64,000 bases of DNA. It comes from an uncultured Bacilli bacterium. GTDB taxonomy: Bacteria > Bacillota_I > Bacilli_A > RF39 > UBA660. The notes beneath the pieces were generated by a model. The model had not been told where the DNA came from, made no database searches, and worked only from the letters and a program-made list of their open reading frames with translations. Below are positions 1,886 through 62,815 of this stretch, in pieces. The stretch spans positions 33,920 to 97,919 of the forward strand of contig CALVRA010000001.1 in NCBI GenBank assembly GCA_944358415.1. Direction: 5' to 3'. A program made the translations under genes and the position numbers. Every line of letters starts with the position of its first letter. The first letter of the stretch is position 1.

Positions 1886-3640
1886 TTATGCTTTTTTCTT
1901 TAAAACAATGAATGCAGTAACCGCAACAATTACAGCAACACCACCAATTACAGCTACTAAAATTATACTATCTGATGTTTTTGGGTTAGTTGCTTCATCT
2001 TTAATATCTTCTTGATCTTTTAACTCTAAACTATCAATCGCTTTTAAAATGTCTTCAGCATATTGATCAACTTCTTTTTGTTCAGTAATGTTTTTATTCC
2101 AATCAACTTTGTTGATTGCATCTTCTACTAAACTAAAGTTTTTGTAGTCGTTTTTATTTAATTTGTTTGCTTTATCAATAGCTTCTTCTACTTTGCTATA
2201 ATCAGCTTTTTTATAAGCTATTGTGACAGTTCCATCTTCATTTGTAGTTACTATTTGGTCTTCATTTACAGTAACTTGATCTAATATTTCTTTAGGGAAT
2301 GTTCCGCCTTCAACGGTTGTTGTAGCACCTGTGTTAGTTGTTGGTATTGTTTGATAAGTACCACCTTTAATTGTTAATTTACCAGAATTTTTAATATTTG
2401 TATTAACTTTGCCAGTTTGGGCTTTACTTGTATCATTGATAGTAATATCTGAGCTATTAGCAATACTAATACCTTTGGTACTGTTAATAGTGTGTCCATT
2501 TAAATCAATGTTAATTTCTTTTCGGCTAATTGAAATGCTACTAGTTTCATTAGTGTCAGCTAATAATTTAACGTTAATGCCTTTAGAATCTAAAGGTACA
2601 CTATTAAGGGCATTTTTTAAATTCGTCCAATATGAATTTGTTGATTCTACATAGACATTAGCATTTTTCATTTCACCTTTTAAATCTAATTGGCCATTTC
2701 CAATTTTAACTCCACCAGTTCCAACAGTTAAAGTTCTTTCTTTAGGAATTACTACTGTAATGCCTTCAGGTATTATTAAAGCACTACTATAGTCAACATC
2801 AATAATTACTTTAGTTCCTTTAACACTATTAGCAATAATTGAACCGTTTGTGTTATTGTGATTAGTTTTAGCAGTTATTTCTCCACTATAAGATTGAACT
2901 GTTCCATTATTATTTCCTGTAGATGTTTTACCAGTAATAGTTGAATCACTAATATTAACTGTTTGCGTAGTTGTTGTACTGTTAAGTCTTTCAGTTCCTA
3001 GAAAATAAAGCCCTGTAATTGTTGAATTTTTAATAGTAATATCTGAATTTTTATTAGCACTAGCACCGCTTCGTGCGAATATGGCATAGTCTTTTTCGGC
3101 AACAACTTTTGTATTATCTACTTTAGCAGTTCCCCAGTTTTGAATAGCACCAGTAAAACCGATTTCTTTGTCCAAAGAGTTTCCCACATGAGTAGAAATA
3201 ACAGTTGAATTTTTAACAGTTAAATTACCATAATGTTCTCCTTCTTCATCTTTACTACTAGTTGCATCATTTTTAATAGTAGCAAAAGCACTTTCAGCTG
3301 TTATGCCATCTACTTCCATTGTGCCTAAGTTTCTAAGGCAAGATGAAGTATTTGATGGACAACTTATTTTACCTTTATTGCTTCCGGTATCGATTATTTT
3401 AACAGTACCTCTATTATCAACAAGATAATCATCAGTTGGTCCTGTTAAGGTATGACCATTTAGGTCAATTGTAAGGCTTTCGCCTTCATTAATGACGTGC
3501 CTTTTTGATAAAGTTACGTCTTCAGTTAGTTTGATTACATTACCACTTTGCATACCATCGAAAGATGTGGCTGCTTTTACGGCAAATGGCAAAGTAATAA
3601 ACAATGCAATAAACCCTAAAGAAAATATTTTCTTTTTCAT
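1886..3640 (-). CDS. large surface protein: N-terminal signal peptide, beta-helix-like Thr/Asn/Gly-rich repeats, helical FIVAR-like module, C-terminal TM anchor
   Basis: Signal peptide. Repeated IDLNGHT(L/I) and ...KNSTI... units. C-terminal hydrophobic helix plus KKKA. Confidence 0.5.
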   Translation of the reverse strand: MKKKIFSLGFIALFITLPFAVKAATSFDGMQSGNVIKLTEDVTLSKRHVINEGESLTIDLNGHTLTGPTDDYLVDNRGTVKIIDTGSNKGKISCPSNTSSCLRNLGTMEVDGITAESAFATIKNDATSSKDEEGEHYGNLTVKNSTVISTHVGNSLDKEIGFTGAIQNWGTAKVDNTKVVAEKDYAIFARSGASANKNSDITIKNSTITGLYFLGTERLNSTTTTQTVNISDSTITGKTSTGNNNGTVQSYSGEITAKTNHNNTNGSIIANSVKGTKVIIDVDYSSALIIPEGITVVIPKERTLTVGTGGVKIGNGQLDLKGEMKNANVYVESTNSYWTNLKNALNSVPLDSKGINVKLLADTNETSSISISRKEINIDLNGHTINSTKGISIANSSDITINDTSKAQTGKVNTNIKNSGKLTIKGGTYQTIPTTNTGATTTVEGGTFPKEILDQVTVNEDQIVTTNEDGTVTIAYKKADYSKVEEAIDKANKLNKNDYKNFSLVEDAINKVDWNKNITEQKEVDQYAEDILKAIDSLELKDQEDIKDEATNPKTSDSIILVAVIGGVAVIVAVTAFIVLKKKA

Positions 3641-3889
3641 TTTTCTACACTCCTCTCTATAATTAAGTATACCCTTTTTTCTACTTTTTTACAATTATTT
3701 TTTTGTTTGAAATTCTTTTTTTAGATAGAAGTGTTAAATAAAGTGACGAATAAAAAAGCATAGCAATATATAGCAATAAATATAATGATAATTTTAATAT
3801 AATCATACAAAATTTCAATGATATTGCCCATAAGTCATAAAGTATAACAGAACCTACATAAAATAAAACTTTCCTTTTTATTGGAAAGT

Positions 3890-5707
3890 TTATTTAGGAT
3901 TTTTCTTGTTTTCGTATTTTTTTCTTTCATTGGTGTTTAGAATTTTCTTTCTTAATCTATAGGTTGCAGGGGTTACTTCGACTAATTCATCTTCATTGAT
4001 ATAGTCTAGGCAAACTTCTAAACTCATTTCTCTTGGCCTTTTTAAGACTACAGTATGATCTTTATTCGCACTTCTAGTGTTTGTTAGTTGTTTACCTTTA
4101 GTAACGTTAACAGCTAAGTCGTTTTCATGGTTATTTTCACCAACTATCATACCCTCATAAACATCTGTTCCTGGTTCAATAAACATAACGCCTCTATCTT
4201 CTAGGGAACCTAGGGCATAGGCTGTAGCTTTGCCATTATCAATAGAAACAAGGACTCCGGCTTTTCTTTCACCAATATTACTTGCAGTAATTGGCTCATA
4301 AGATTTAAAGGCATGAGATAATATTCCATAACCTTTAGTTAAGGTCATAAATTCAGTTGTAAAGCCAATTAATCCTCTTGATGGAATGGTATATAAAAGT
4401 TTTGTCTGATTATCAAAAGGAGTCATATTTTCCATTGTTCCACCACGGTTACCTAATGATTCAATGACTGGTCCAACATATTCTTCTGGGACTTCGATTT
4501 CAACATCTTCAAAGGGTTCACATTTTATGTCATCTATTTCTTTGACAATGATTTGTGGTTTTGATACTTCTAGTTCATATCCTTCTCTTCGCATTGTTTC
4601 AATTAATATTGATAGGTGAAGTTCACCTCTACCAGATACCATCCATGACTCAGAGTCTATTTGTTTTACTTTTAAGGATACATCTTTTTCAGTTTCTTTG
4701 ATTAATCTATCTTCTATTTGTCTTGCGGTTAGAAATTTTCCATCTCTACCATTAAATGGACTGGTATTTACACCAAAGGTCATTTGTAAGGTTGGTTCAT
4801 CAATTCTAAGTGGTTCAAGTGCTTCTTCGTGTCCAACTTCACATACTGTTTCACCAACTGATATATCAGGTAAACCAGCTATAGCGACAATGTCTCCAGC
4901 ATGAGCTTCTTCAACTTCTATTTTATTTAGTCCTAGATAACCAAATATTTTTTGAATTCTAAACTGTTTTTTTGTACCATCTAAACGCATACATGTTACT
5001 GTAGAATTTACTTTGATATGTCCTCTTTTAACGACACCGATACCGATTCTTCCTACAAAATCATTATAATCAAGTAGGGCAGGTTGAAATTGGAAAGGTC
5101 CATTTTCATCAACATTTGGCTCTGGTATATTTTCAATAACGGCATCTAATATTGGATCCATGGTCTTGGCTTGAGTATTTAAATCAGAAGATGTAGAAGA
5201 GGTTCCATTTAGGGCAGATGCATATAATACTGGGAAGTCTAATTGTTCAATGGAAGCGCCTAATTCAATGAATAAATCCATGACTTCATCGACAACTTTT
5301 TCTGGTCTAGCAGATGGTTTATCGATTTTATTGACAACTACTATTGGAGTTACGCCAGCAGCTAGAGCTTTTTTTAGTACAAATCTAGTTTGAGGCATGG
5401 TTCCTTCATAGGCATCAACAACTAATAAAACACCATCAACCATATTCATTATTCTTTCAACTTCACCGCCAAAGTCAGCATGTCCTGGAGTATCTAAGAT
5501 GTTTATTTTATATCCTTTATAATTAATGGCAGTTGTTTTTGCTAAAATGGTTATTCCGCGTTCTTTTTCTAGGGCATTTGAATCCATGACTCTTTTTCCT
5601 ATTTCTTCGTTTTCTCTAAATGTTCCTGACTGTTTTAATAATTGATCGACGAGTGTTGTTTTACCATGATCGACATGGGCAATTATTGCAATATTTCTCT
5701 GTTTCAT
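3890..5707 (-). CDS. typA: translational GTPase TypA/BipA
   Basis: G1 [10 protein letters not shown]3 [12 protein letters not shown]. BipA length. Start moved to the ATG at 5707, which has an upstream AGAGGG RBS. Confidence 0.9.
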
Positions 5708-5776
5708 ACAAATCCCTCTTTTCACACTAGGAACAATTATAACACTTATGTATTTAATTGTAAATAAATTTTTGTT

Positions 5777-6373
5777 TTAAGATTGTTTGCGTTTTAGTGT
5801 GGAAAAGTTATTTATTAATCTAATTATTATTCTAATGGTCCATACAAAGAAACTTCCAATATATAAATCATTAATAGCATCTTCTCTTTTAGAAAAGTAA
5901 TTTGATTTTAAAATCATTTTATTTCTAAGTGAGAGAAGATTTAATATTTTTAAATCATCAAAGGTAATTATTTGACATCTTTTTTCTACTTCTGAGCAAG
6001 TAAATAGTTTACAAGTGAGATTTTTGGTTTTACAACCTTTTTCACTTTGATATTTGCACATTCTACAGCATCCATTTATAGTACCATTATTTAATTTTTG
6101 CTGGACGTAGCACTTATTATTTTTAAAACCACATATATTTTTATTATTATAATGGTTATCTATTTGCGTGCATGCTTCATCATAAATATATGTTATTCTT
6201 TCTTTTCTTTTTTTAATATTTAAAGCTGTAATGGGTTTTATTTCTTTATAGTCGGTTTCTACTTTAAAATATATTTTTTTAAAGATAAATGATTTATAAA
6301 AAAAGAGCTTTCGATAAAATTTATCTAAAGCTTTTTGGTCTTTTATTTTTAATATTTTAAGCATCAATTCCAC
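5777..6373 (-). CDS. cysteine-rich hypothetical protein
   Basis: Long ORF with clustered Cys (GCCRMCKY...GCKTKNLTCKLFTC). Overlaps the NUDIX gene stop by 17 nt, so it is probably co-transcribed. Confidence 0.4.
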   Translation of the reverse strand: MELMLKILKIKDQKALDKFYRKLFFYKSFIFKKIYFKVETDYKEIKPITALNIKKRKERITYIYDEACTQIDNHYNNKNICGFKNNKCYVQQKLNNGTINGCCRMCKYQSEKGCKTKNLTCKLFTCSEVEKRCQIITFDDLKILNLLSLRNKMILKSNYFSKREDAINDLYIGSFFVWTIRIIIRLINNFSTLKRKQS

Positions 6374-6800
6374 CGAAGTAGTTTCTCAATATATAATCAA
6401 AAGATATTTTGACATCTGGAAAAACTGACATTTCTTCTAAATCATGTCTTGAAAACCAACCAATATCATTACTTTCATCACTTACTTTTAATGGTTCTTC
6501 TGGGTTGTTTGGTTTTCCAACATAAACTATATCAACCATTCTATCACCATTATCTTTTCTATTATATTGGATACCTAATGGTCTTATTAAATCATCTTCT
6601 CTTGGGAAGTGCTCACCAATTAAAGTTGTTTTTATGCCTGTTTCTTCATAGACTTCTCTAGTGGCAGCTTCTTCTGGGGTTTCATTATCTTCGATATGTC
6701 CACCAGGCTGAAGCCATTTATTATATTTTTTGTGTTTGACAAGTAATAATTTTTTATTATTTGGATTAATTATATATGCAGATGCGCAAAAATGTCTCAT
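6357..6800 (-). CDS. NUDIX hydrolase
   Basis: Complete Nudix box GGHIEDNETPEEAATREVYEETGI (Gx5Ex7REUxEExGU). Confidence 0.8.
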   Translation of the reverse strand: MRHFCASAYIINPNNKKLLLVKHKKYNKWLQPGGHIEDNETPEEAATREVYEETGIKTTLIGEHFPREDDLIRPLGIQYNRKDNGDRMVDIVYVGKPNNPEEPLKVSDESNDIGWFSRHDLEEMSVFPDVKISFDYILRNYFGGIDA

Positions 6801-6841
6801 ATTATCACCTTTGTCATTATAGCAGTTATTAAAGATAATTA

Positions 6842-7561
6842 CTAGTTTAAGATGTCATAAGTTTTAGAATTGACATTTTTTCCGTAAACTATGAAGTTTT
6901 CTTTTAAATCAAGAGTTGCTAAAATGATATCTTGAAGTTTATAGCCTTTGACTTTTATTTCATGTTTAAGCCATTTTTCATCTTTATGCATTATTTTTAG
7001 AGATTCATAGATAATTTTTCCATCAATGATTAGGTTCGCACATAGTCCTGTTTTTTCTTTATTTATATTTAAATCTTTATTAGTCGGTTTTTGAAAATCT
7101 GGTTTAGCAAGAAAGCTTATTTTTCCATTGGCTTCCATTAAGGCATAGTCAATTTCTTGAATATCAAAGTAACCGTTAATTCTACATTCTTCTAAAAGAT
7201 CGTTGATATCGAATTTCGTTTTTTTTAGATTTTTATATAATATTTTACCATCTTCGATAATGATAGTGGGGTCACCTATAAAAAATCTTCTTAGTTTGAG
7301 GTTTTTTAAAGTAAGGATAGAAACTAAATATGCGACTATTCCAAAGACTATGACGGCAATAGTGCCATGCATATAGTCAGAGTCGAGGTTTAAAGCCATT
7401 TCAGCAGCAAAGTTACCTATGGAAATACCAATGACATAGTCAAAAAGACTAAACTGAGATACTTGTTTTTTTCCAATCATTTTGGTAACAAAAAATAGGG
7501 TAACTAGAGATATTAAACATCTTAATATTACGTCTAATATTTCCATTATTTCCTTTGACAT
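6842..7561 (-). CDS. DUF421 (YetF-like) membrane protein
   Basis: N-terminal TM helices. MIGKKQVSQFSLFDYV motif typical of YetF/DUF421. Confidence 0.7.
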   Translation of the reverse strand: MSKEIMEILDVILRCLISLVTLFFVTKMIGKKQVSQFSLFDYVIGISIGNFAAEMALNLDSDYMHGTIAVIVFGIVAYLVSILTLKNLKLRRFFIGDPTIIIEDGKILYKNLKKTKFDINDLLEECRINGYFDIQEIDYALMEANGKISFLAKPDFQKPTNKDLNINKEKTGLCANLIIDGKIIYESLKIMHKDEKWLKHEIKVKGYKLQDIILATLDLKENFIVYGKNVNSKTYDILN

Positions 7562-7614
7562 ATAATCACCATTAATATTATGAGGTTAAAAAAAATAATT
7601 ATACTTTTTGATAA

Positions 7615-8673
7615 TTATTTTTCTTTATTATGTTTTTTATGGAAAGCGGCTTTATCAACGATGATGTCGGTTTTTAATATGAATATAATAACTATTATAG
7701 TTAATACTGTGTATATTATATAGCCGAGTTTTTGGTCATGAAGGGCATAGATGATAGAAGCAGTGGCAAATAATATATCAATTCCATAAATAATTAAAAC
7801 TGTTGCTTTATGGGAAAAGTTTTTATTTAAAAGTTGATGATGAAGGTGAGATTTATCGGGTTTAGATATTTTTTCACCTTTTAATAACCTTCTTATAATA
7901 GCAAATACAGTATCTAGGATAGGAATAGCTAATATAAGTAATGGGATAATTAGTGAGGTTAAGGTTACACTTTTGAAACCAAGTAAGGCAATAACGGCTA
8001 TCATAAAGCCCATAAATAATGAACCTGAGTCACCGGCAAAGATACTTGCTGGATGAAAGTTATGGACTAAGAAACCTAAGACAGAACCAAGCATGATGAA
8101 TGTTAAAATAAAATCCAAGCCTGTTTTACCCATAATAATAGCAATTATTCCGATGGTAGCAAAGTAAATGGAGCTAATTCCAGCAGCTAAGCCATCTAAC
8201 CCATCAATTAGGTTAATACAGTTAAGGCAGCCTAAGATAAAAAATATGGTAATAGGGTAGGCAAGTAATCCTAAATCTAAGTAAAAACCAAAGGCTGTAA
8301 TATCTTGAATTAAAAGTTTGCCATAACAAGTTACAACGATTGCGGCCATTAATTGAGCAGCAAATTTTACGGAAGCTTTTAATGGTTTAATGTCATCAAT
8401 TGCGCCGGTTAATACTATTATAAAACTTCCTATTAGTATAGAATTCATGGTACTACTAGGTTCACCAAATAAGATATAGCCAAACAGAAAACCAAAGAAT
8501 ATGGCAAGGCCGCCTAATCTTGGCATGGGTTTACTATGGACTTTTCTTTTATTTGGAATATCTAAAGCTCCGACATGAATAGCTATTTTTTTGATAAAAG
8601 GAATTAATAATGCGACAAATATAAATGTCGTAATTATCATTAGAAAAATGTTAGTTATTTCATTTTGTGTCAT
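7615..8673 (-). CDS. MraY/WecA-family polyprenyl-phosphate N-acetylhexosamine-1-phosphate transferase (TagO-like)
   Basis: About 10 TM segments. PNKRKVHSKPMPRLGG, DDIKPL and DGLDGLA motifs of glycosyltransferase family 4. Confidence 0.8.
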   Translation of the reverse strand: MTQNEITNIFLMIITTFIFVALLIPFIKKIAIHVGALDIPNKRKVHSKPMPRLGGLAIFFGFLFGYILFGEPSSTMNSILIGSFIIVLTGAIDDIKPLKASVKFAAQLMAAIVVTCYGKLLIQDITAFGFYLDLGLLAYPITIFFILGCLNCINLIDGLDGLAAGISSIYFATIGIIAIIMGKTGLDFILTFIMLGSVLGFLVHNFHPASIFAGDSGSLFMGFMIAVIALLGFKSVTLTSLIIPLLILAIPILDTVFAIIRRLLKGEKISKPDKSHLHHQLLNKNFSHKATVLIIYGIDILFATASIIYALHDQKLGYIIYTVLTIIVIIFILKTDIIVDKAAFHKKHNKEK

Positions 8674-10712: not shown

Positions 10713-11720
10713 CTAATAACGTTTATTTAAACCACTTTCTAGTAAAGGAATATTTTCTAGCAAAACACCGGTACCTTCAACTACGCAAGTTAATGGGCTT
10801 TCAGCTACAAATACAGGTACTTTTAGTTCATGAGAAAGCAATTGATCAATACCGTTTAATAAAGCTCCACCACCAGTTATGACAATACCTTTATCAATTA
10901 TATCAGCTGATAGTTCTGGAGGTGTTTGTTCTAAGACTGATTTGGCGGTATTTACGATGATATAAGCACTTTCTCTTAGAGCTTCTTCAACTTCATCTGA
11001 GGTTAAGGTTATGGTATGAGGCAAGCCTGTGACTAAGTCTCTTCCTCTTACTTCCATTTTTTCGTTTTTTGAACCTGGAAATACGGTGCCTATTTCAAAT
11101 TTTATTTCTTCAGCTGTTCTATCTCCAACTAGGAGTTTATATTTTTCTCTAATATATTTTATAATATCATTGTCAAAGGTGTTTCCAGCAATTTTGATTG
11201 ATGATGAAGTTACTATTCCACCTAATGATAAAACGGCTACATCGGTTGTTCCACCACCAATATCAATGACCATATTGCCACTTGGTTTAGAAATATCCAT
11301 GCCAGCTCCAACGGCAGCAACTTTTGGTTCTTCTTCTAGGTATACTTTTCTAGCTCCGGTTTTTTCAGCGGCTTCTCTGATGGCATTTTTTTCTACTTGC
11401 GTGATGTTTGATGGACAGCAAATTAGTATTCTAGGTCTTCCAAAGAAACTTTTACCGTTAACTTTTCTAATAAAGTTATTCAACATTATTTCGGTTATTT
11501 CGAAGTCAGCAATGACACCATCTTTCATAGGTCTTATGGCTCTTACTTGTCCTGGAGTTCTTCCAAGCATTTCTTTAGCGGCGGTTCCAACAGCAACCGG
11601 TCTTTTGGTTTCTTCATCAATGGCTACAACGCTTGGTTCATTTAAAACTATTCCTTGTCCTTTAATATAAATAAGAACATTAGCTGTTCCTAAATCTATT
11701 CCAATATCTTTTGAAAACAT
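10713..11720 (-). CDS. mreB: rod-shape-determining actin homologue MreB/Mbl
   Basis: IGIDLGTANV phosphate-1 motif and DIGGGTTD phosphate-2 motif. 335 aa. Confidence 0.9.
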   Translation of the reverse strand: MFSKDIGIDLGTANVLIYIKGQGIVLNEPSVVAIDEETKRPVAVGTAAKEMLGRTPGQVRAIRPMKDGVIADFEITEIMLNNFIRKVNGKSFFGRPRILICCPSNITQVEKNAIREAAEKTGARKVYLEEEPKVAAVGAGMDISKPSGNMVIDIGGGTTDVAVLSLGGIVTSSSIKIAGNTFDNDIIKYIREKYKLLVGDRTAEEIKFEIGTVFPGSKNEKMEVRGRDLVTGLPHTITLTSDEVEEALRESAYIIVNTAKSVLEQTPPELSADIIDKGIVITGGGALLNGIDQLLSHELKVPVFVAESPLTCVVEGTGVLLENIPLLESGLNKRY

Positions 11721-11970
11721 ATTATCACCCTTTTTCTTAAAATATTATATCATACAAGTGGTTATTTGGGTATTAATATTGGCTTTTTTTTAATACTTTT
11801 TTTGTCACATTTTAAAAGAAAAAGAGTTTGGTTATTAATGTTAGTATCTTAAAGATTACATGGCTACATAAAATGATATTCTTTGTATATTTGTATAATA
11901 CAATCTTGAATTTTATTAATTATTATATAAAATATATTATTAGGTTATATTTGACACTTTAAAATATCGC

Positions 11971-12837
11971 ATGATAAAATTGGAATGTGGTGATTTAATG
12001 TTAAGTAAATTTGATTATAGTAAAAATTTCATTGAAAATGATGAAATATTGGTATGTCCAATATGTAAAAAGAAATTATATATTAAAGAACATTCATTAA
12101 TGTGTGAAAATGCTCATAACTTTAATCTTTCAAAAAAAGGTATTACGAATCTTGTTTCACATAATCATATTAAAGAAAGCAAAATATATAATTATGATTT
12201 ATTTTTCAATAGAAGATGTTTCATTCAAAAAATGTTCTATCAAAAATTATATGATAAAATTGTCAGGATTATAAATAAACATTTTGATAAAAATATAAAT
12301 ATTTTAGATTTAGGCTGTGGAGAAGGGGCTCATACAATTAATATACTAAATAATTTAAAACTAAATTATAAGTATTATGGCTTTGATTATTCAAAAATAG
12401 CTATTCAAATGGCGAGTGATTATAATTCCAATAATAGATTTTATTTTGTAGGTGATGTTAATAATATTCCTATTAAAGATCATTCTACACATTTAATTAT
12501 TGATATACTTTCACCTTATAATCAGTTAGAAGTTAAAAGAGTTTTAAAGAAAAAAGGATTATTTATTAAAGTATCTCCAGGAAAAAACTATTTAAAAGAG
12601 CTTAGATTAGCTACAGGCATATCTATTTATGATAAAGATACAGAAGTTGAACGAAATTTGGAAAAAAATTTTAAAAAAGTGCGGAAAGAGAATATTTTAA
12701 TTACTTATCCTATTACTAATGAAGACTTTATGCTACTTTTAAAAATGTCGCCAATGCAAAGCGAAAAGATTTTAAATAAGCCTAATACAATTACAATTGA
12801 TTTAAATATATATATTATGAATGGAGAAGAATTATGA
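11971..12837 (+). CDS. RlmA-like SAM-dependent methyltransferase with N-terminal zinc ribbon
   Basis: CPICKKKL...CENAHNFNLSKKG zinc-ribbon and LDLGCGEG SAM motif, as in 23S rRNA G745/G748 methyltransferases. Its stop overlaps the next gene's start (ATGA). Confidence 0.7.
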   Translation: MIKLECGDLMLSKFDYSKNFIENDEILVCPICKKKLYIKEHSLMCENAHNFNLSKKGITNLVSHNHIKESKIYNYDLFFNRRCFIQKMFYQKLYDKIVRIINKHFDKNINILDLGCGEGAHTINILNNLKLNYKYYGFDYSKIAIQMASDYNSNNRFYFVGDVNNIPIKDHSTHLIIDILSPYNQLEVKRVLKKKGLFIKVSPGKNYLKELRLATGISIYDKDTEVERNLEKNFKKVRKENILITYPITNEDFMLLLKMSPMQSEKILNKPNTITIDLNIYIMNGEEL

Positions 12838-14150
12838 TTTCTAAATACGCAAATAAAATAAAAATCAAAAAAGATGTTTATGCAATATTTAATAGTTTAG
12901 TTATGTTACCCATTTTTGTTAACGAAAAACAATGTGCAAATATTTTAAATGGTAATATTGATAATTTAACTAATGAGGAAAAAACAGAATTTATAAAAGC
13001 CGGTATAATTATAGAAAATAAAGAAATTGATAATCAACTTTTAAATACACTAAAATCAGCACGTGAGCAATATATGAAAGAACATATCACTATAATGTAT
13101 ATTATTCCTACAAATACTTGTAATTTAAGATGTAAATATTGTTTTATAGGTAAACTTAATGATAAACCAATTAAAATGGAAGAAAGTACTTTGATTAAAG
13201 CCATAGAAATGTTTAATAGTCATTTAGAGAAAATAGGCGAAAAAGGGACTATATTTCTTTACGGAGCAGAGCCATTATTAAACTTTGATTTAATTAAATT
13301 AGGGGTTTTATATGTGAAAAAGCAAAATTATAATATTCAATTTTCTATGGTATCAAACGGAATACTTATAACTGAAGAAATAGCAGATTTTATAAAAAAT
13401 AACAACATCTCATTAGGAATTTCCATTGATGGTCCAAAAGAAATTACTGATGAAAATAGAATATTTAAAAGTAACAACAAAAGTGTGTACGATTTTGTTT
13501 TAAACAAAATAGAGTTATTAAAAGAAAAAAACGTTGATTTTGGTTTATCAATTACAATAGCACCTATTTTTCTTGAAAATGAAGACTATTTTCTAAATTG
13601 GATTTCTAAACTAGGAGTATATAACATTAGCTATAATTTATTACATTTCACTACTAAAACGGATGAATGGAAAGAATATTATAAAAAAGCAACTAAATTT
13701 ATTTATAAATCTAACAAAAAATTGTTTGATCAAGGTTTTAATGAAGATAGAATTAACAGAAAATATGATTCATTTTACAACAGAATATTTAAATTTAGTG
13801 ACTGTGGAGCGATTGGTGGAAATCAAATAACTGTATGTCCAAATGGTGATATTGAAATATGTCATGGTTATTGGAATTATAAAAGAAAAATTTTACCAAA
13901 CATTAATCAAATTCAATCATTTTCCGATTTATTTGATAATCCTGAATATATAAAATGGTCTAATAATATTACATTAAATAAGAAAAAATGTTTGCGTTGC
14001 CCTGCAATATATATATGTGGTGGTGGCTGTGCTATGCAAGCAAAGGATTTATTTGGTAATGAAAAGGAAATTGATAAACCATTTTGTATATATACTAAAG
14101 GAATGCTTAAAAACATATTAAAAGAGGTTTATGATGATAATATAAATTAA
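12834..14150 (+). CDS. radical SAM / SPASM-domain peptide maturase
   Basis: CNLRCKYC (Cx3Cx2C) cluster. C-terminal Cys-rich SPASM region (CGAIGG..CPNGDIEIC..CLRCPAIYICGGGC..FC). About 85-aa N-terminal extension. Confidence 0.85.
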   Translation: MISKYANKIKIKKDVYAIFNSLVMLPIFVNEKQCANILNGNIDNLTNEEKTEFIKAGIIIENKEIDNQLLNTLKSAREQYMKEHITIMYIIPTNTCNLRCKYCFIGKLNDKPIKMEESTLIKAIEMFNSHLEKIGEKGTIFLYGAEPLLNFDLIKLGVLYVKKQNYNIQFSMVSNGILITEEIADFIKNNNISLGISIDGPKEITDENRIFKSNNKSVYDFVLNKIELLKEKNVDFGLSITIAPIFLENEDYFLNWISKLGVYNISYNLLHFTTKTDEWKEYYKKATKFIYKSNKKLFDQGFNEDRINRKYDSFYNRIFKFSDCGAIGGNQITVCPNGDIEICHGYWNYKRKILPNINQIQSFSDLFDNPEYIKWSNNITLNKKKCLRCPAIYICGGGCAMQAKDLFGNEKEIDKPFCIYTKGMLKNILKEVYDDNIN

Positions 14151-14201
14151 TTGACTTCTAAGATATTATCATGATAGAATTAGCGAAAGGAGGGAAATAC
14201 A

Positions 14202-14387
14202 ATGAAAATAGCAAAAATTAGTACAACTAACAAAAAATTTAGAGCATCTAATTCTATGGCTTCTACTTGTAATTGTGGAGCTTGCAATTGCAATTGTGGT
14301 AGTGGAAGTAATTGCAGTAATGTTTTCATTTCACATGAAATAACATCATTGCTAAATGCTCAAGTCGATAACATTTTAAAAGCATAA
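14202..14387 (+). CDS. candidate RiPP precursor peptide (six-Cys, Cys/Asn/Gly/Ser-rich core)
   Basis: 61 aa. Strong RBS GGAGGG 8 nt upstream. Core TCNCGACNCNCGSGSNCSN. Immediately downstream of the rSAM/SPASM gene and followed by a terminator. Confidence 0.6.
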   Translation: MKIAKISTTNKKFRASNSMASTCNCGACNCNCGSGSNCSNVFISHEITSLLNAQVDNILKA

Positions 14388-14408
14388 TTTAGCATCTTTT
14401 TAACACCT

Positions 14409-14446
14409 AAACAGCGCATTATCTTAATTGATAAATGCGCTGTTTT
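14409..14446. terminator. bidirectional rho-independent terminator (copy A)
   Basis: 11-bp stem AAACAGCGCAT/ATGCGCTGTTT with a flanking T-run. Near-identical to the hairpin at 15148-15185. Confidence 0.7.
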
Positions 14447-14462
14447 GTATTAAAAAAAGAGT

Positions 14463-14598
14463 TTAGTTACTCTTTAATTCGTCAGGCGTTTTATCAAAGC
14501 AGTTTTCTGGATTTATGTATCTGCCATCGACAGTGATTTCAAATAGGACATGATTACCTAAGTCTTTTTTTTTAGTTTGACTGGCCATCTTTACCAAT
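14463..14598 (-). pseudogene. decayed duplicate of the 3' end of the SpoIIQ-like M23 gene
   Basis: Roughly 85-90% identical by eye to 15201-15335. The translation IGKDGQSN* is interrupted by a stop and a frameshift relative to IGKAGQSNLEKDLGNH. Confidence 0.7.
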
Positions 14599-14713: not shown

Positions 14714-15145
14714 ATGACAGGAGAAGAATTGGAAGTGAAAAAAAGAGAATTACAAGAGTTACGAAAACTTAAAGCTGAGTTGATAAAGGAACGTCAAAGA
14801 TTTTTAGAGAATAGTTCAATTCAAGATTTTTTAACACTTGAAAAACGGATTAGTGAAACTAGTGAAGACTGTAATAATTTACAAAAAATAATACGAGATG
14901 GATGTCCTCACCCTATATGGTATGCGCTGAAACGTGATGTGCATACATACACAGGTAGAACTTATTTAACATGTATGTGTTTAGAATGTGGAAAAGTTAG
15001 AAAAGCTTATCCTCAAGATTTTTCAGAAGTTATATTTAAAAGTACACTTTCACCTTCTCAAGCAGTTAGTGAATGGGAAAAATTTAAAGATACATTTCCA
15101 AATACAAAAGACAAGGTTAAAACATTTACTAAAGTGATAAAATAG
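14714..15145 (+). CDS. hypothetical protein: N-terminal coiled coil plus C-terminal 4-Cys putative zinc-binding region
   Basis: AAGGAGG RBS 7 nt upstream. 143 aa. Cys at DGCPHP and LTCMCLECG. Bracketed by about 190-bp direct repeats. Confidence 0.5.
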   Translation: MTGEELEVKKRELQELRKLKAELIKERQRFLENSSIQDFLTLEKRISETSEDCNNLQKIIRDGCPHPIWYALKRDVHTYTGRTYLTCMCLECGKVRKAYPQDFSEVIFKSTLSPSQAVSEWEKFKDTFPNTKDKVKTFTKVIK

Positions 15146-15147
15146 AT

Positions 15148-15185
15148 AAACAGCGCATTTATCAGTTATGGTAATGCGCTGTTTT
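15148..15185. terminator. bidirectional rho-independent terminator (copy B)
   Basis: Stem AAACAGCGCAT/ATGCGCTGTTT plus a T-run. Serves ORF 14714-15145 and the convergent M23 gene. Confidence 0.7.
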
Positions 15186-15200
15186 ATATTAAAAAAGAGT

Positions 15201-15848
15201 TTAGTTACTCTTTAATTCATCAATTGTTTTATCAAAGCAGTTTTCTGGATTTATGTATTTGCCATCAATAGTTATTTCAAATAAAACATGGTTACCTAAG
15301 TCTTTTTCTAGGTTTGACTGGCCAGCTTTACCAATGACTGTGCTTTGAGCGACAGTATCGCCTTCTTTTACTGTTACTTCACTTAAGCTTTGATATGTGG
15401 TTATGACATTTGATTCATGTTCAATTGTAACGATTTTACCCATTAGTTTATCTTCTTTGACTGATGTGACGGTACCTGGTAAAACACTTACAACGTCGAA
15501 AATTTCGTTTATACCACCATAAGATGCACCACTATTTTGGATATATGTTGTATCATAGTTTATTATAGAGTTTTGCTGGGTGTTTTCATCGCTTTGGTAG
15601 TCATAGAAAGTATTTAAGGCTTTGACATTGGTGTTTGTATATGGTCTTACGATTACATTTGGGGTACTGACAACGGAAATGACATTATCATCAAATAGTC
15701 TAGAGACATAGATTAGGTCTTCTTCTGGTTTTAGATCTTGTTTTGATGTATTGGCATACATTAGACCACCAATTAGGGCAAGACTGACGGCGATGCAGAC
15801 ACTATAAATGACTGGTTTTTTTATTTTTAATTTTTTCATTTTTTTCAC
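15201..15848 (-). CDS. SpoIIQ-like membrane-anchored protein with a degenerate LytM (M23) domain
   Basis: N-terminal TM helix. M23 fold motifs are present, but HxxxD is absent and HxH is reduced to NHVLFE. Directly downstream of spoIID, as in clostridial spoIID-spoIIQ loci. Confidence 0.6.
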   Translation of the reverse strand: MKKMKKLKIKKPVIYSVCIAVSLALIGGLMYANTSKQDLKPEEDLIYVSRLFDDNVISVVSTPNVIVRPYTNTNVKALNTFYDYQSDENTQQNSIINYDTTYIQNSGASYGGINEIFDVVSVLPGTVTSVKEDKLMGKIVTIEHESNVITTYQSLSEVTVKEGDTVAQSTVIGKAGQSNLEKDLGNHVLFEITIDGKYINPENCFDKTIDELKSN

Positions 15849-45079: not shown

Positions 45080-45300
45080 TAAATAAAAAAACATCCTTAG
45101 GATAAGGACGTTTATGAGCGTGGTACCACCTTAATTCGTAAGATTTTCTTACCTTTGAACATATAACGGTGTTTACCGCTTTAGCTTAAATATCGGCTAA
45201 AGTGCTTAGGAGCCATTTAGAGTAGTCACCTTGTTTATTTCCACCAACCATAAACTCTCTATAAAGTTACCTACTTTTCTTTCCTTCACAGCATTTATGG
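45080..45300 (-). promoter_or_regulatory. T-box riboswitch leader (probable Met specifier AUG)
   Basis: Minus strand reads AATTAAGGTGGTACCACGC (T-box consensus) at 45118-45136, followed by a terminator hairpin plus U-run. Stem I begins with an AGAGAG motif. AAAUGG specifier candidate at 45214-45216. Confidence 0.8.
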
Positions 45301-62632: not shown

Positions 62633-62651
62633 ATTATCACCTATATAAAAA

Positions 62652-62724
62652 GGTACACACATTTAGAGGACCTTAAGGCTGCTATCTTCCGATTCTGACC
62701 TGGTTCAGCCATAAATGTTGTACC
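62652..62724 (-). ncRNA. ffs: small (4.5S-type) signal recognition particle RNA
   Basis: Minus strand reads GGUACAACAUUUAUGGCUGAACCAGGUCAGAAUCGGAAGAUAGCAGCCUUAAGGUCCUCUAAAUGUGUGUACC. Domain IV core ACCAGGUCAG..CGGAAG..AGCAGCC and a closing helix are present. Lies near tadA/dnaX as in Bacillus. Confidence 0.75.
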
Positions 62725-62815
62725 AATAATTATATTATAATAATTAGAGAAAAATGTCTATATTTTTTTATAAGTTTTTATAAGTTTTGTATGGTTTTCC
62801 ACAGTATTTATTTTT

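Follow-up and report, generated by a model that had tools for sequence, protein, structure and literature searches.

A candidate RiPP cassette in uncultured gut Bacilli: a radical SAM/SPASM enzyme, its putative cysteine- and asparagine-rich substrate peptide and a coupled RlmA-type methyltransferase gene

Introduction

A 64,000-nucleotide (nt) stretch of DNA from an uncultured Bacilli bacterium (GenBank assembly GCA_944358415.1, contig CALVRA010000001.1, positions 33,920 to 97,919 of the forward strand; hereafter the window) carries three co-oriented plus-strand genes that probably form the cassette of an undescribed family of peptides that are ribosomally made and then post-translationally modified (RiPPs). 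They encode a methyltransferase of 279-288 amino acids (aa), a 438-aa radical S-adenosylmethionine (SAM) enzyme with a SPASM domain, and a 61-aa cysteine-rich peptide in which this enzyme would install thioether cross-links. Enzyme and peptide would constitute an obligate pair, with which the upstream RlmA-type methyltransferase would be co-transcribed and translationally coupled. The region had been described earlier, from its nucleotide sequence, as a two-gene system resembling SCIFF (six cysteines in forty-five residues) peptides (below, the original prediction). The unit is not strictly one of two genes, since the RlmA-like methyltransferase gene, which that account did not mention, is translationally coupled to the maturase gene. 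Positions refer to the window, and homologous loci are cited by their L numbers.

Results

A cysteine-rich peptide with a conserved core, leader and follower

The peptide gene (14202-14387, plus strand; supported by its open reading frame (ORF) and its homologues) encodes a basic leader (residues 1-20) with a KKFR motif, a cysteine-rich core and a conserved follower. The core, STCNCGACNCNCGSGSNC (residues S21-C38; 14262-14315, plus strand; delimited by the family consensus), is composed only of C, N, G, S, A and T, and its six cysteines are spaced C-x-C-xx-C-x-C-x-C-x5-C. The ATG lies 51 nt downstream of the radical SAM gene, which ends at 14150, and is preceded at a distance of 8 nt by the Shine-Dalgarno sequence AGGAGG (14188-14193, plus strand). 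In all these respects, including the 18-residue core, its spacing, the strong ribosome-binding site and the basic leader, the original prediction proved accurate, and the encoded product is exactly as quoted there; only the C-terminal tail had been measured too short, at 21 aa, as 23 aa follow the last cysteine.

Cysteine accounts for 1.0% of residues in the long ORFs of the window, and among its 77 six-frame ORFs of 40-100 aa a single one, the 61-aa ORF, contains at least five cysteines within 18 residues. The core STCNCGxCNCNCG is kept in nine homologous loci despite synonymous changes (TGT/TGC, AAT/AAC, GGN, TCN/AGY), and a Shine-Dalgarno sequence precedes the peptide gene in all nine, strong and of the AGGAGG type in eight and weaker (GGGAG) in L109. 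Because synonymous changes leave the core intact and its cysteine density is an outlier, the ORF is not a chance pattern; by these sequence criteria the gene is genuine and subject to purifying selection.

Used alone as the query of a word-indexed search, the peptide found one relative (84% identity). The family was recovered with a profile of 13 peptides harvested from loci that had been seeded with the enzyme, and this profile returned approximately 145 clusters at 90% identity, all unnamed or annotated as 'hypothetical'. An exhaustive hidden Markov model search of 1.84 billion representatives gave 45 matches, of which one was a false positive consisting of zinc-finger repeats and 44 were peptides of 48-76 aa; at 50% identity, the family thus numbers 44 representatives. 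Its members share a layout in which a basic leader, with a median length of 23 aa, a net charge of +3 and frequently a KKF/Y(R) motif, precedes a core of approximately 20 residues containing 4-8 cysteines; the follower after it measures approximately 18 aa and in many cases terminates in ...[IV]Y-x-K. The cores fall into at least seven subtypes, the commonest having the consensus [ST]-x-C-N-C-G-x-C-N-C-N-C-G. The peptide has no NCBIfam match at E up to 1 and no Pfam match, and literature searches for core strings (e.g., CNCNCG) and for the names FibroRumin, TIGR04135 and TIGR04136 returned no relevant paper, in keeping with the earlier statement that the core pattern belongs to no described family. 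The related loci come from uncultured low-GC Bacilli of animal and human guts. A cysteine- and tryptophan-rich reverse ORF downstream in L001 was rejected as artefactual, since a collagen-like repeat lies on the opposite strand.

The enzyme has the architecture of a peptide maturase

The 438-aa enzyme (12834-14150, plus strand; assigned by Pfam, NCBIfam, AlphaFold2 (AF2) and Foldseek) carries the radical SAM cluster motif CNLRCKYC (13119-13142, plus strand), i.e., C96-x3-C100-x2-C103, and matches Pfam Radical_SAM (PF04055) with 76.8 bits (cut-off 29.5). Its C-terminal SPASM domain (13803-14087, plus strand) contains seven cysteines (C324, C343, C386, C389, C395, C399 and C418). As the original prediction had proposed from the CNLRCKYC motif and the SPASM cysteine set, both features are genuine: all three cysteines of the motif and all seven SPASM cysteines are invariant across 29 homologues. 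The Pfam SPASM score of the window enzyme (20.1 bits) is slightly below the cut-off of 21.5, and the domain is called in most homologues. The six SPASM cysteines within the aligned span (C324-C399) coincide residue by residue with those of the SCIFF maturase CteB, C418 lying outside this span, and C335 is conserved neither among the homologues nor in CteB.

In the AF2 model of the enzyme (predicted local distance difference test (pLDDT) score 93.4), residues 6-80 form a beta3-alpha3 domain ahead of the radical SAM barrel (pLDDT >90), with strands 6-12, 15-20 and 27-29 followed by helices 31-38, 47-55 and 63-80. In this model the N-terminal domain (residues 1 to approximately 85; 12834-13088, plus strand) has the layout of a RiPP recognition element (RRE), and peptide binding, specifically of the leader, is predicted for it. 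Full-length alignments cover it as well: that to TigE (8vpo) spans residues 11-430, and the FibroRumin, CefB and Clo7bot models align from residues 2-3 onward. Foldseek ranks CteB (E 3e-21, TM 0.70) and TigE highest, followed by anaerobic sulfatase-maturating enzymes (anSMEs), SuiB and ChlB; CteB and TigE are also the closest solved relatives by sequence, over the full length including the RRE-like domain.

The top NCBIfam match is the FibroRumin maturase model TIGR04136 (218.2 bits over residues 2-433; cut-off 400), followed by PapB (160.2 bits), CefB (137) and CcpM (132). The model of QhpD reaches 98 bits against a cut-off of 453, that of the SCIFF maturase (TIGR03974) 95.6 against 425, and the two anSME models TIGR03942 and PRK13758 105.3 and 68 against 349 and 441, respectively; alignments to anSMEs do not begin before residue 93 and leave the N-terminal domain uncovered. 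The domain layout, these scores and the alignment spans together identify the enzyme as an RRE-radical SAM-SPASM peptide maturase rather than an anSME, and an anSME identity is further ruled out by the neighborhoods, all of which, among those examined, lack a sulfatase gene. Thus, the proposed check against clustering with anSMEs came out in favor of the maturases FibroRumin, PapB, CefB and CcpM.

Among the matches listed, more than 120 homologues share at least 42% identity with the enzyme; nearly all are metagenomic and none is specifically named. A scan of a genome collection with the enzyme alignment yielded mostly distant radical SAM enzymes among the matches listed, of which loci L001-L008 were used. 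The PHROG family phrog_1802, comprising phage-encoded proteins with a radical SAM domain, matches residues 68-432 with 163 bits. A phage or defense-system origin of the cassette was considered and rejected: in viral contigs the core DNA pattern has 0 matches, the best relative of the enzyme there is 27% identical over most of its length (short partial matches reach 38%), and PADLOC reports only generic viperin-core and methyltransferase similarity.

Enzyme and peptide genes occur and are lost together

Among loci seeded with the enzyme at 35% identity or more, all except L004 and L089 have a cysteine-rich peptide gene within approximately 1.2 kb, and at 37-75% identity all except L089 encode a related peptide within that distance. 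In the reverse direction, every complete locus seeded from four peptide subfamilies carries the enzyme gene. The co-occurrence anticipated in the original prediction is therefore found in both search directions, and in the enzyme tree the peptide subfamilies follow the enzyme clades.

The arrangement of the pair is far from constant. The peptide gene lies downstream on the same strand in the window, L003, L005, L090 and L116, downstream on the opposite strand in L081 and L085, upstream of the methyltransferase gene on the opposite strand in L001, L002, L084, L086, L087 and L117, and between the methyltransferase and radical SAM genes in L088, so that the maturase-first order emphasized previously is not a trait of the family. 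No flanking gene is common to different contexts, and none of those flanking the cassette in the window (mreB, the M18 peptidase, M23 and spoIID genes and a 143-aa ORF) recurs in other loci.

Two near-isogenic pairs of loci are particularly informative. L084 and L133 have flanks that are 98% identical at the nucleotide level, and L133 lacks both the peptide gene, situated upstream of the methyltransferase gene, and the radical SAM gene, situated downstream of it. The same joint absence is seen in L113 as compared with L114. The joint absence in both pairs indicates that enzyme and peptide are gained or lost together.

These observations bear on the proposal that the small ORF is not the substrate at all, the radical SAM protein being anSME-like or another modifier and the ORF a coincidental or independent, metallothionein-like gene. 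That anSMEs appear among the sequence and structure matches, and that the peptide has no database family, would fit such a proposal. It is contradicted by anSME scores far below their cut-offs, by an N-terminal RRE-like domain outside the anSME alignments, by the lack of a sulfatase beside the gene in any locus, and by the co-occurrence in both search directions and the co-loss from opposite sides of the methyltransferase gene. We regard it as highly improbable and effectively excluded.

Some further loci were noted. In six contexts (L091-L096, 4303-6520) the peptide gene is followed by a 57-aa ORF and a 683-aa large serine recombinase, and in L097 (2562-3848) a DDE transposase lies between the radical SAM and peptide genes. 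L004 (4406-4558, plus strand) encodes a 50-aa ORF with a leader-like KKMFG motif and four cysteines, located approximately 1.4 kb upstream of an enzyme gene with 35% identity; this ORF resembles FibroRumin leaders and, from its sequence, may represent an intermediate family.

The coupled gene is an RlmA-type methyltransferase

The gene upstream of the maturase gene (11998-12837, plus strand) encodes a 279-aa RlmA-family class-I SAM methyltransferase with a Zn ribbon. It is matched by Pfam Zn_ribbon_RlmA (PF21302; 35.3 bits, cut-off 27) and a methyltransferase domain model (PF13847; 43.7 bits), as well as by the Escherichia coli RlmA structure 1p91 (E = 2e-23). Weaker matches include the resistance enzymes ChrB, Erm(32) and MyrA. 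The putative Zn ligands (CPxC...C...H) and the LDLGCGEG sequence (GxGxG motif) are invariant in 11 orthologues. The protein thus shares the RlmA Zn ribbon and the class-I fold with RlmA(I) and RlmA(II), including TlrB/Erm(32), ChrB and MyrA, but it stays under the equivalog cut-off of the NCBIfam model for 23S rRNA m1G745 methyltransferases (PRK11088; 142.7 bits vs. 303). The longest ORF of this gene opens at 11971 (288 aa), a position that the original prediction had assigned to the radical SAM operon, and an alternative ATG at 11998 gives 279 aa. The real start is probably the latter, because a promoter-like site (11951-11980, plus strand; TTGACA-18-TAAAAT with TG, with 11 of 12 consensus matches the best in the region, a consensus match only) overlaps the ATG at 11971, and because homologues begin with MLSK or MQSK.

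The methyltransferase gene adjoins the radical SAM gene in approximately 18 distinct contexts. Its stop codon and the start of the radical SAM gene share 4 bp (ATGA) in the window, a 4-bp overlap also found in L081, L084, L086 and L087, and in L107 and L109, where the order is permuted to peptide-radical SAM-methyltransferase, the two genes again overlap by 4 bp. In the enzyme tree the methyltransferase-linked systems fill two non-sister clades, one of which (with a QCTCSNCNCNC core) also has a second class-I methyltransferase. The clade between them has a GNAT acetyltransferase in the corresponding overlapping position upstream of the radical SAM gene, the best matches of the GNAT, generic and below cut-offs, being RimI and aminoglycoside acetyltransferases. 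Judged from gene order, the linkage between methyltransferase and cassette is under selection. To our knowledge, no RlmA gene has been reported as operonic with a RiPP maturase, and our literature search for such an arrangement found none.

The methyltransferase also occurs on its own. A metagenome scan seeded with it recovered intact related genes without radical SAM or peptide genes (L112, L113, L118, L121 and L133), and in the methyltransferase tree such stand-alone copies branch among the linked ones (nucleotide identity is 94% between L121 and L126 and 90% between L113 and L114); the more distant relatives all stand alone. This tree and the methyltransferase-only loci rule out a dedicated, system-specific subfamily. 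The gene persists alone and therefore has a function independent of the peptide; most likely, it keeps its own rRNA-methylating (m1G745/748-type) function. Between L084 and L133 the methyltransferase genes are 74% identical in nucleotides inside the 98% identical flanks, which indicates that the methyltransferase was exchanged along with the cassette. It may be tied to the system by co-regulation or self-protection rather than by dedicated tailoring of the peptide.

Such tailoring has nevertheless to be weighed, i.e., a methyltransferase that N-, S- or O-methylates the peptide, for instance at Asn or Cys side chains or at a terminus, with the GNAT of the sister clade and the second methyltransferase of the QCTCSNCNCNC clade as analogous tailoring enzymes. 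Adjacency and 4-bp overlaps kept over 37-75% enzyme identity and in permuted order would suit this role, as would the GNAT filling the same slot in one clade, the extra class-I methyltransferase in another, and the loss of that extra gene together with the radical SAM and peptide genes in L121, which is typical of tailoring genes. Near-identical intact methyltransferases nevertheless persist without peptide and radical SAM genes (L113, L121, L133 and L112), the linked ones form no separate clade, and the protein retains all the hallmarks of RlmA, among them the Zn ribbon that binds RNA, all of which makes dedicated tailoring unlikely.

Self-protection would take a more definite form if the cross-linked peptide were a toxin that hits the ribosome tunnel near 23S rRNA hairpin 35, the methyltransferase protecting the producer by m1G745/748 formation. 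The methyltransferase-only loci would then be orphan immunity genes, and the GNAT an alternative detoxifying or immunity enzyme in the sister clade. Immunity to a RiPP through rRNA methylation is known for thiopeptide producers, and the methyltransferase family includes the self-resistance enzymes of macrolide producers Erm(32)/TlrB, ChrB and MyrA. The gene is translationally coupled to the maturase gene in two gene orders, was exchanged with the cassette (L084 vs. L133) and outlasts the loss of the peptide and radical SAM genes, like orphan immunity genes, and the best matches of the GNAT are RimI and aminoglycoside acetyltransferases. On the other side, conserved exporter or lysis functions are lacking, RlmA homologues are widespread as housekeeping genes, and stand-alone RlmA-like genes occur in housekeeping contexts (in L112, for example, beside a SpoU-like methyltransferase gene, a NUDIX gene and pheS); the GNAT matches, moreover, are generic and below cut-offs. 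Taken together, we consider a toxin with its own immunity gene quite unlikely.

Several genes near these clades deserve mention. In the GNAT clade, a conserved protein of approximately 313 aa is encoded after the peptide gene (L005, 7552-8493; L090, 5571-6554; L102-L106, 4222-5169); it starts with MIIDTHSHVGRD, matches no family and resembles a metal-dependent hydrolase, so that it may be a processing enzyme. An ArpU-like 138-aa gene stands ahead of the GNAT gene in L005 and L102-L106 and was not detected in L090. L128 has an insertion of approximately 1.5 kb between its two methyltransferase genes (~4392-5918).

Relation to described peptide families

On sequence grounds, the cassette matches no described family, is sister to FibroRumin and has no database name for its peptide. 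FibroRumin (TIGR04136/TIGR04135), which is defined only bioinformatically, is the curated family closest to the window enzyme, and FibroRumin enzymes of approximately 30% identity (L006-L008) are the immediate outgroup of the window enzyme family in the enzyme tree. FibroRumin precursors are also approximately 50-65 aa long, with a dense C-x-C-xx-C-N-x-C-x-C core and conserved N- and C-terminal parts. The two differ in several respects: the window enzyme lies far under the FibroRumin cut-off, and the window peptide and seven relatives have no TIGR04135 match at E up to 10 (cut-off 45), whereas the peptides of L006-L008 score 34-70 bits. The leaders (basic KKF/Y-R vs. Y-x-KMFG) and followers (...IYxK vs. 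acidic ...DELDWE) are unrelated; the window family has a single precursor gene in variable position and FibroRumin 2-3 tandem upstream precursor genes; and FibroRumin loci are without a linked RlmA-like methyltransferase or GNAT. Homology to FibroRumin precursors was rejected, as hhalign aligns only 12 core columns with a probability of 9%.

The likeness to SCIFF drawn in the original prediction stands for the enzyme's structure, CteB (5wgg/5why) being the closest solved relative by sequence and fold, with the same RRE-radical SAM-SPASM architecture and SPASM cysteine pattern. It fails at the family level, where FibroRumin is closer and the SCIFF models failed, both for the maturase and for the peptide, which has no match to the SCIFF precursor model (TIGR03973). 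SCIFF is likewise a minimal system without protease or exporter whose precursor has approximately six cysteines, but in the window peptide the cysteine spacing is far tighter and the core lacks SCIFF's Thr and acidic acceptors; gene order is variable, a methyltransferase is coupled, and the system is accessory and patchy, whereas SCIFF is near-universal in a class.

Characterized radical SAM enzymes offer models for the chemistry. The streptococcal enzyme NxxcB joins a Cys sulfur to the Asn beta-carbon via a thiolate bound to an auxiliary cluster (PMC9389541). The window core has an N-x-x-C element (N29...C32) and alternating Cys and Asn; NxxcA, however, carries a single ring as compared with 4-8 cysteines in the window family, and NxxcB is not among the top NCBIfam matches. 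PapB, of the freyrasin type, and QhpD, which form Cys-to-Asp/Glu beta- or gamma-thioethers, each install several thioethers per peptide, and PapB is the second-best NCBIfam match of the window enzyme. Its score is nevertheless low (160.2 bits vs. 340 for NF047865), as is that for QhpD, and the window core is without Asp or Glu and without CxxxD repeats. Tight CxCxC...GxGxG cores (StsA/BlaA; streptosactin) give hairpin sactionines with Cys-to-Gly links that form small rings, nested or in tandem (PMC10288494; PMC9389541), and the window core similarly has close-set Cys donors and potential Gly acceptors in its CNCG units and G-x-G segment. The hairpin sactipeptide enzymes fall into the MftC-like or GggB groups, neither of which supplies the best matches here, and no sequence homology was detected between their precursors and the window peptide.

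Signals and surroundings of the cassette

A second promoter-like site (14151-14180, plus strand; TTGACT-18-TAGAAT with TG, 10 of 12, a consensus match only) lies just 5' of the peptide gene and would permit separate transcription of the precursor. The terminator predicted to follow the peptide gene is present as an intrinsic hairpin with a T-run (14409-14445, plus strand), with a folding energy of -21.9 kcal/mol (z = -5.9; 0 of 200 shuffles equally good); a consensus terminator scan did not pick it up. This terminator is bidirectional and present in two copies.

The cassette is a plus-strand island amid minus-strand housekeeping genes (mreB, the M23 peptidase gene and spoIID), and the guanine-plus-cytosine (GC) content of the methyltransferase-radical SAM segment (11600-14200) is 21-25%, as compared with 30-36% in the flanking mreB and M23/spoIID genes. 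The low GC content and the strand island fit an accessory, exchangeable cassette.

A direct repeat of approximately 165 nt, 91-96% identical, occurs at 14434-14598 and 15173-15335, its unit consisting of the terminator hairpin and the last approximately 35 codons of an M23/LytM-like gene (15201-15848, minus strand). The first copy accordingly contains a fragment of that gene (14463-14597), and the second terminator copy is at 15148-15198. The duplicated terminator and gene end are consistent with an insertion or duplication of approximately 740 bp. Between the repeat copies lies the 143-aa ORF (14714-15145, plus strand), with a coiled coil at the N-terminus and Cys residues at the C-terminus (CPHP...CMCLECG). 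It gave only a weak, sub-threshold Pfam Rz-lysis match and nothing in NCBIfam, PHROG or PADLOC, and it is not kept beside the cassette in other loci. Elsewhere in the window, a T-box leader (45101-45298, minus strand; 115.7 bits) and a bacterial small signal recognition particle RNA (62637-62734, minus strand; 58.5 bits) are ordinary Bacillota features.

Discussion

The data are best explained by an undescribed RiPP family in which the precursor would start with a basic leader of approximately 20 aa (KKFR), continue with a Cys/Asn/Gly core (CNCG-x-CNCNCG...C) and end in a conserved follower of approximately 20 aa. The N-terminal RRE domain of the radical SAM/SPASM enzyme would bind this precursor; the enzyme would then reductively cleave SAM, take a hydrogen atom from core residues and join the carbon radicals so formed to Cys thiolates that occupy the open site of auxiliary cluster I. 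The outcome would be several intramolecular thioether rings of the sactipeptide or ranthipeptide type, each with a mass change of -2 Da. Possible acceptors are Asn, Gly, Ser, Thr and Ala, among which the sequence cannot tell. We propose this mechanism because the domain architecture and SPASM cysteine pattern are those of CteB, the sactisynthases and the ranthisynthases.

Several observations weigh against this explanation and temper our confidence in it. The enzyme reaches the curated cut-off of no NCBIfam maturase model, the chemistry is modeled on CteB, a relative of approximately 21% identity, and FibroRumin, the nearest family, is likewise uncharacterized. The pairing has exceptions: L119 and L131 keep the peptide, the methyltransferase and the second methyltransferase, and the radical SAM gene is precisely deleted in both (corresponding to positions 5124-6486 of L126; on two independent contigs these look like decaying alleles), and L089 (45% identity) has an enzyme homologue without a clear cognate peptide nearby. 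The L089 neighborhood, in which no CNCG-type peptide was found, is a multi-radical-SAM cluster (2098-7721) with a MiaB/RimO-like methylthiotransferase, a B12-radical SAM C-methyltransferase and a second SPASM protein. The Cys-dense cores could also be metal ligands, and conservation of both peptide termini is unusual for a simple leader-core design. Finally, a conserved protease or exporter was found in none of the examined contexts, in agreement with the original prediction, and a secreted, leader-cleaved product is accordingly not evident. Given this absence and the conservation of both peptide ends, the product may stay intracellular or use unlinked processing and export.

An intracellular, non-exported product could have a SCIFF-like signaling or housekeeping role, bind metals or take part in redox reactions, or act as a cofactor like pyrroloquinoline quinone (PQQ) or mycofactocin. 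PQQ and mycofactocin are radical SAM/SPASM peptides without a dedicated exporter. The conserved leader and follower, the resemblance of the core to metal-binding sequences, the co-transcription of the cassette with an RNA-modification gene and the lack of a conserved protease or transporter in any context all accord with such a product, for which SCIFF also provides a precedent without a dedicated exporter (PMC9389541). However, presence/absence polymorphism in near-identical backgrounds and the small, patchy family (44 representative clusters) point to an accessory rather than a core trait, and no further cofactor-tailoring enzymes are present. We therefore see an intracellular product of this kind as possible, with the balance tilted against it.

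The cassette, if it is what we propose, would join a group of enzymes whose action on Cys-rich peptides has repeatedly given new bond types, namely alpha-, beta- and gamma-thioethers. In the dense CNCG-x-CNCNCG core almost any residue could act as donor or acceptor, so that a compact polycyclic cage could form, possibly with Asn-linked thioethers. The CNCG-repeat core and the conserved coupling of an RlmA-type methyltransferase, replaced by a GNAT in a sister clade, set the family apart. With two or three genes the system is small enough for direct reconstitution, and the natural presence/absence alleles in near-identical backgrounds are ready comparisons for studying its function. Through the methyltransferase coupling, a link from a RiPP to ribosome modification or self-protection can be put to the test. 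In the boldest version of that link, which we regard as a long shot, a thioether-caged Cys/Asn peptide would bind in or near the nascent-peptide exit tunnel and the coupled methyltransferase would be its cognate immunity protein. If true, this would be the first radical SAM RiPP paired with an RlmA-class rRNA methyltransferase and would point to uncultured gut Bacilli as the source of a new peptide scaffold that binds the tunnel.

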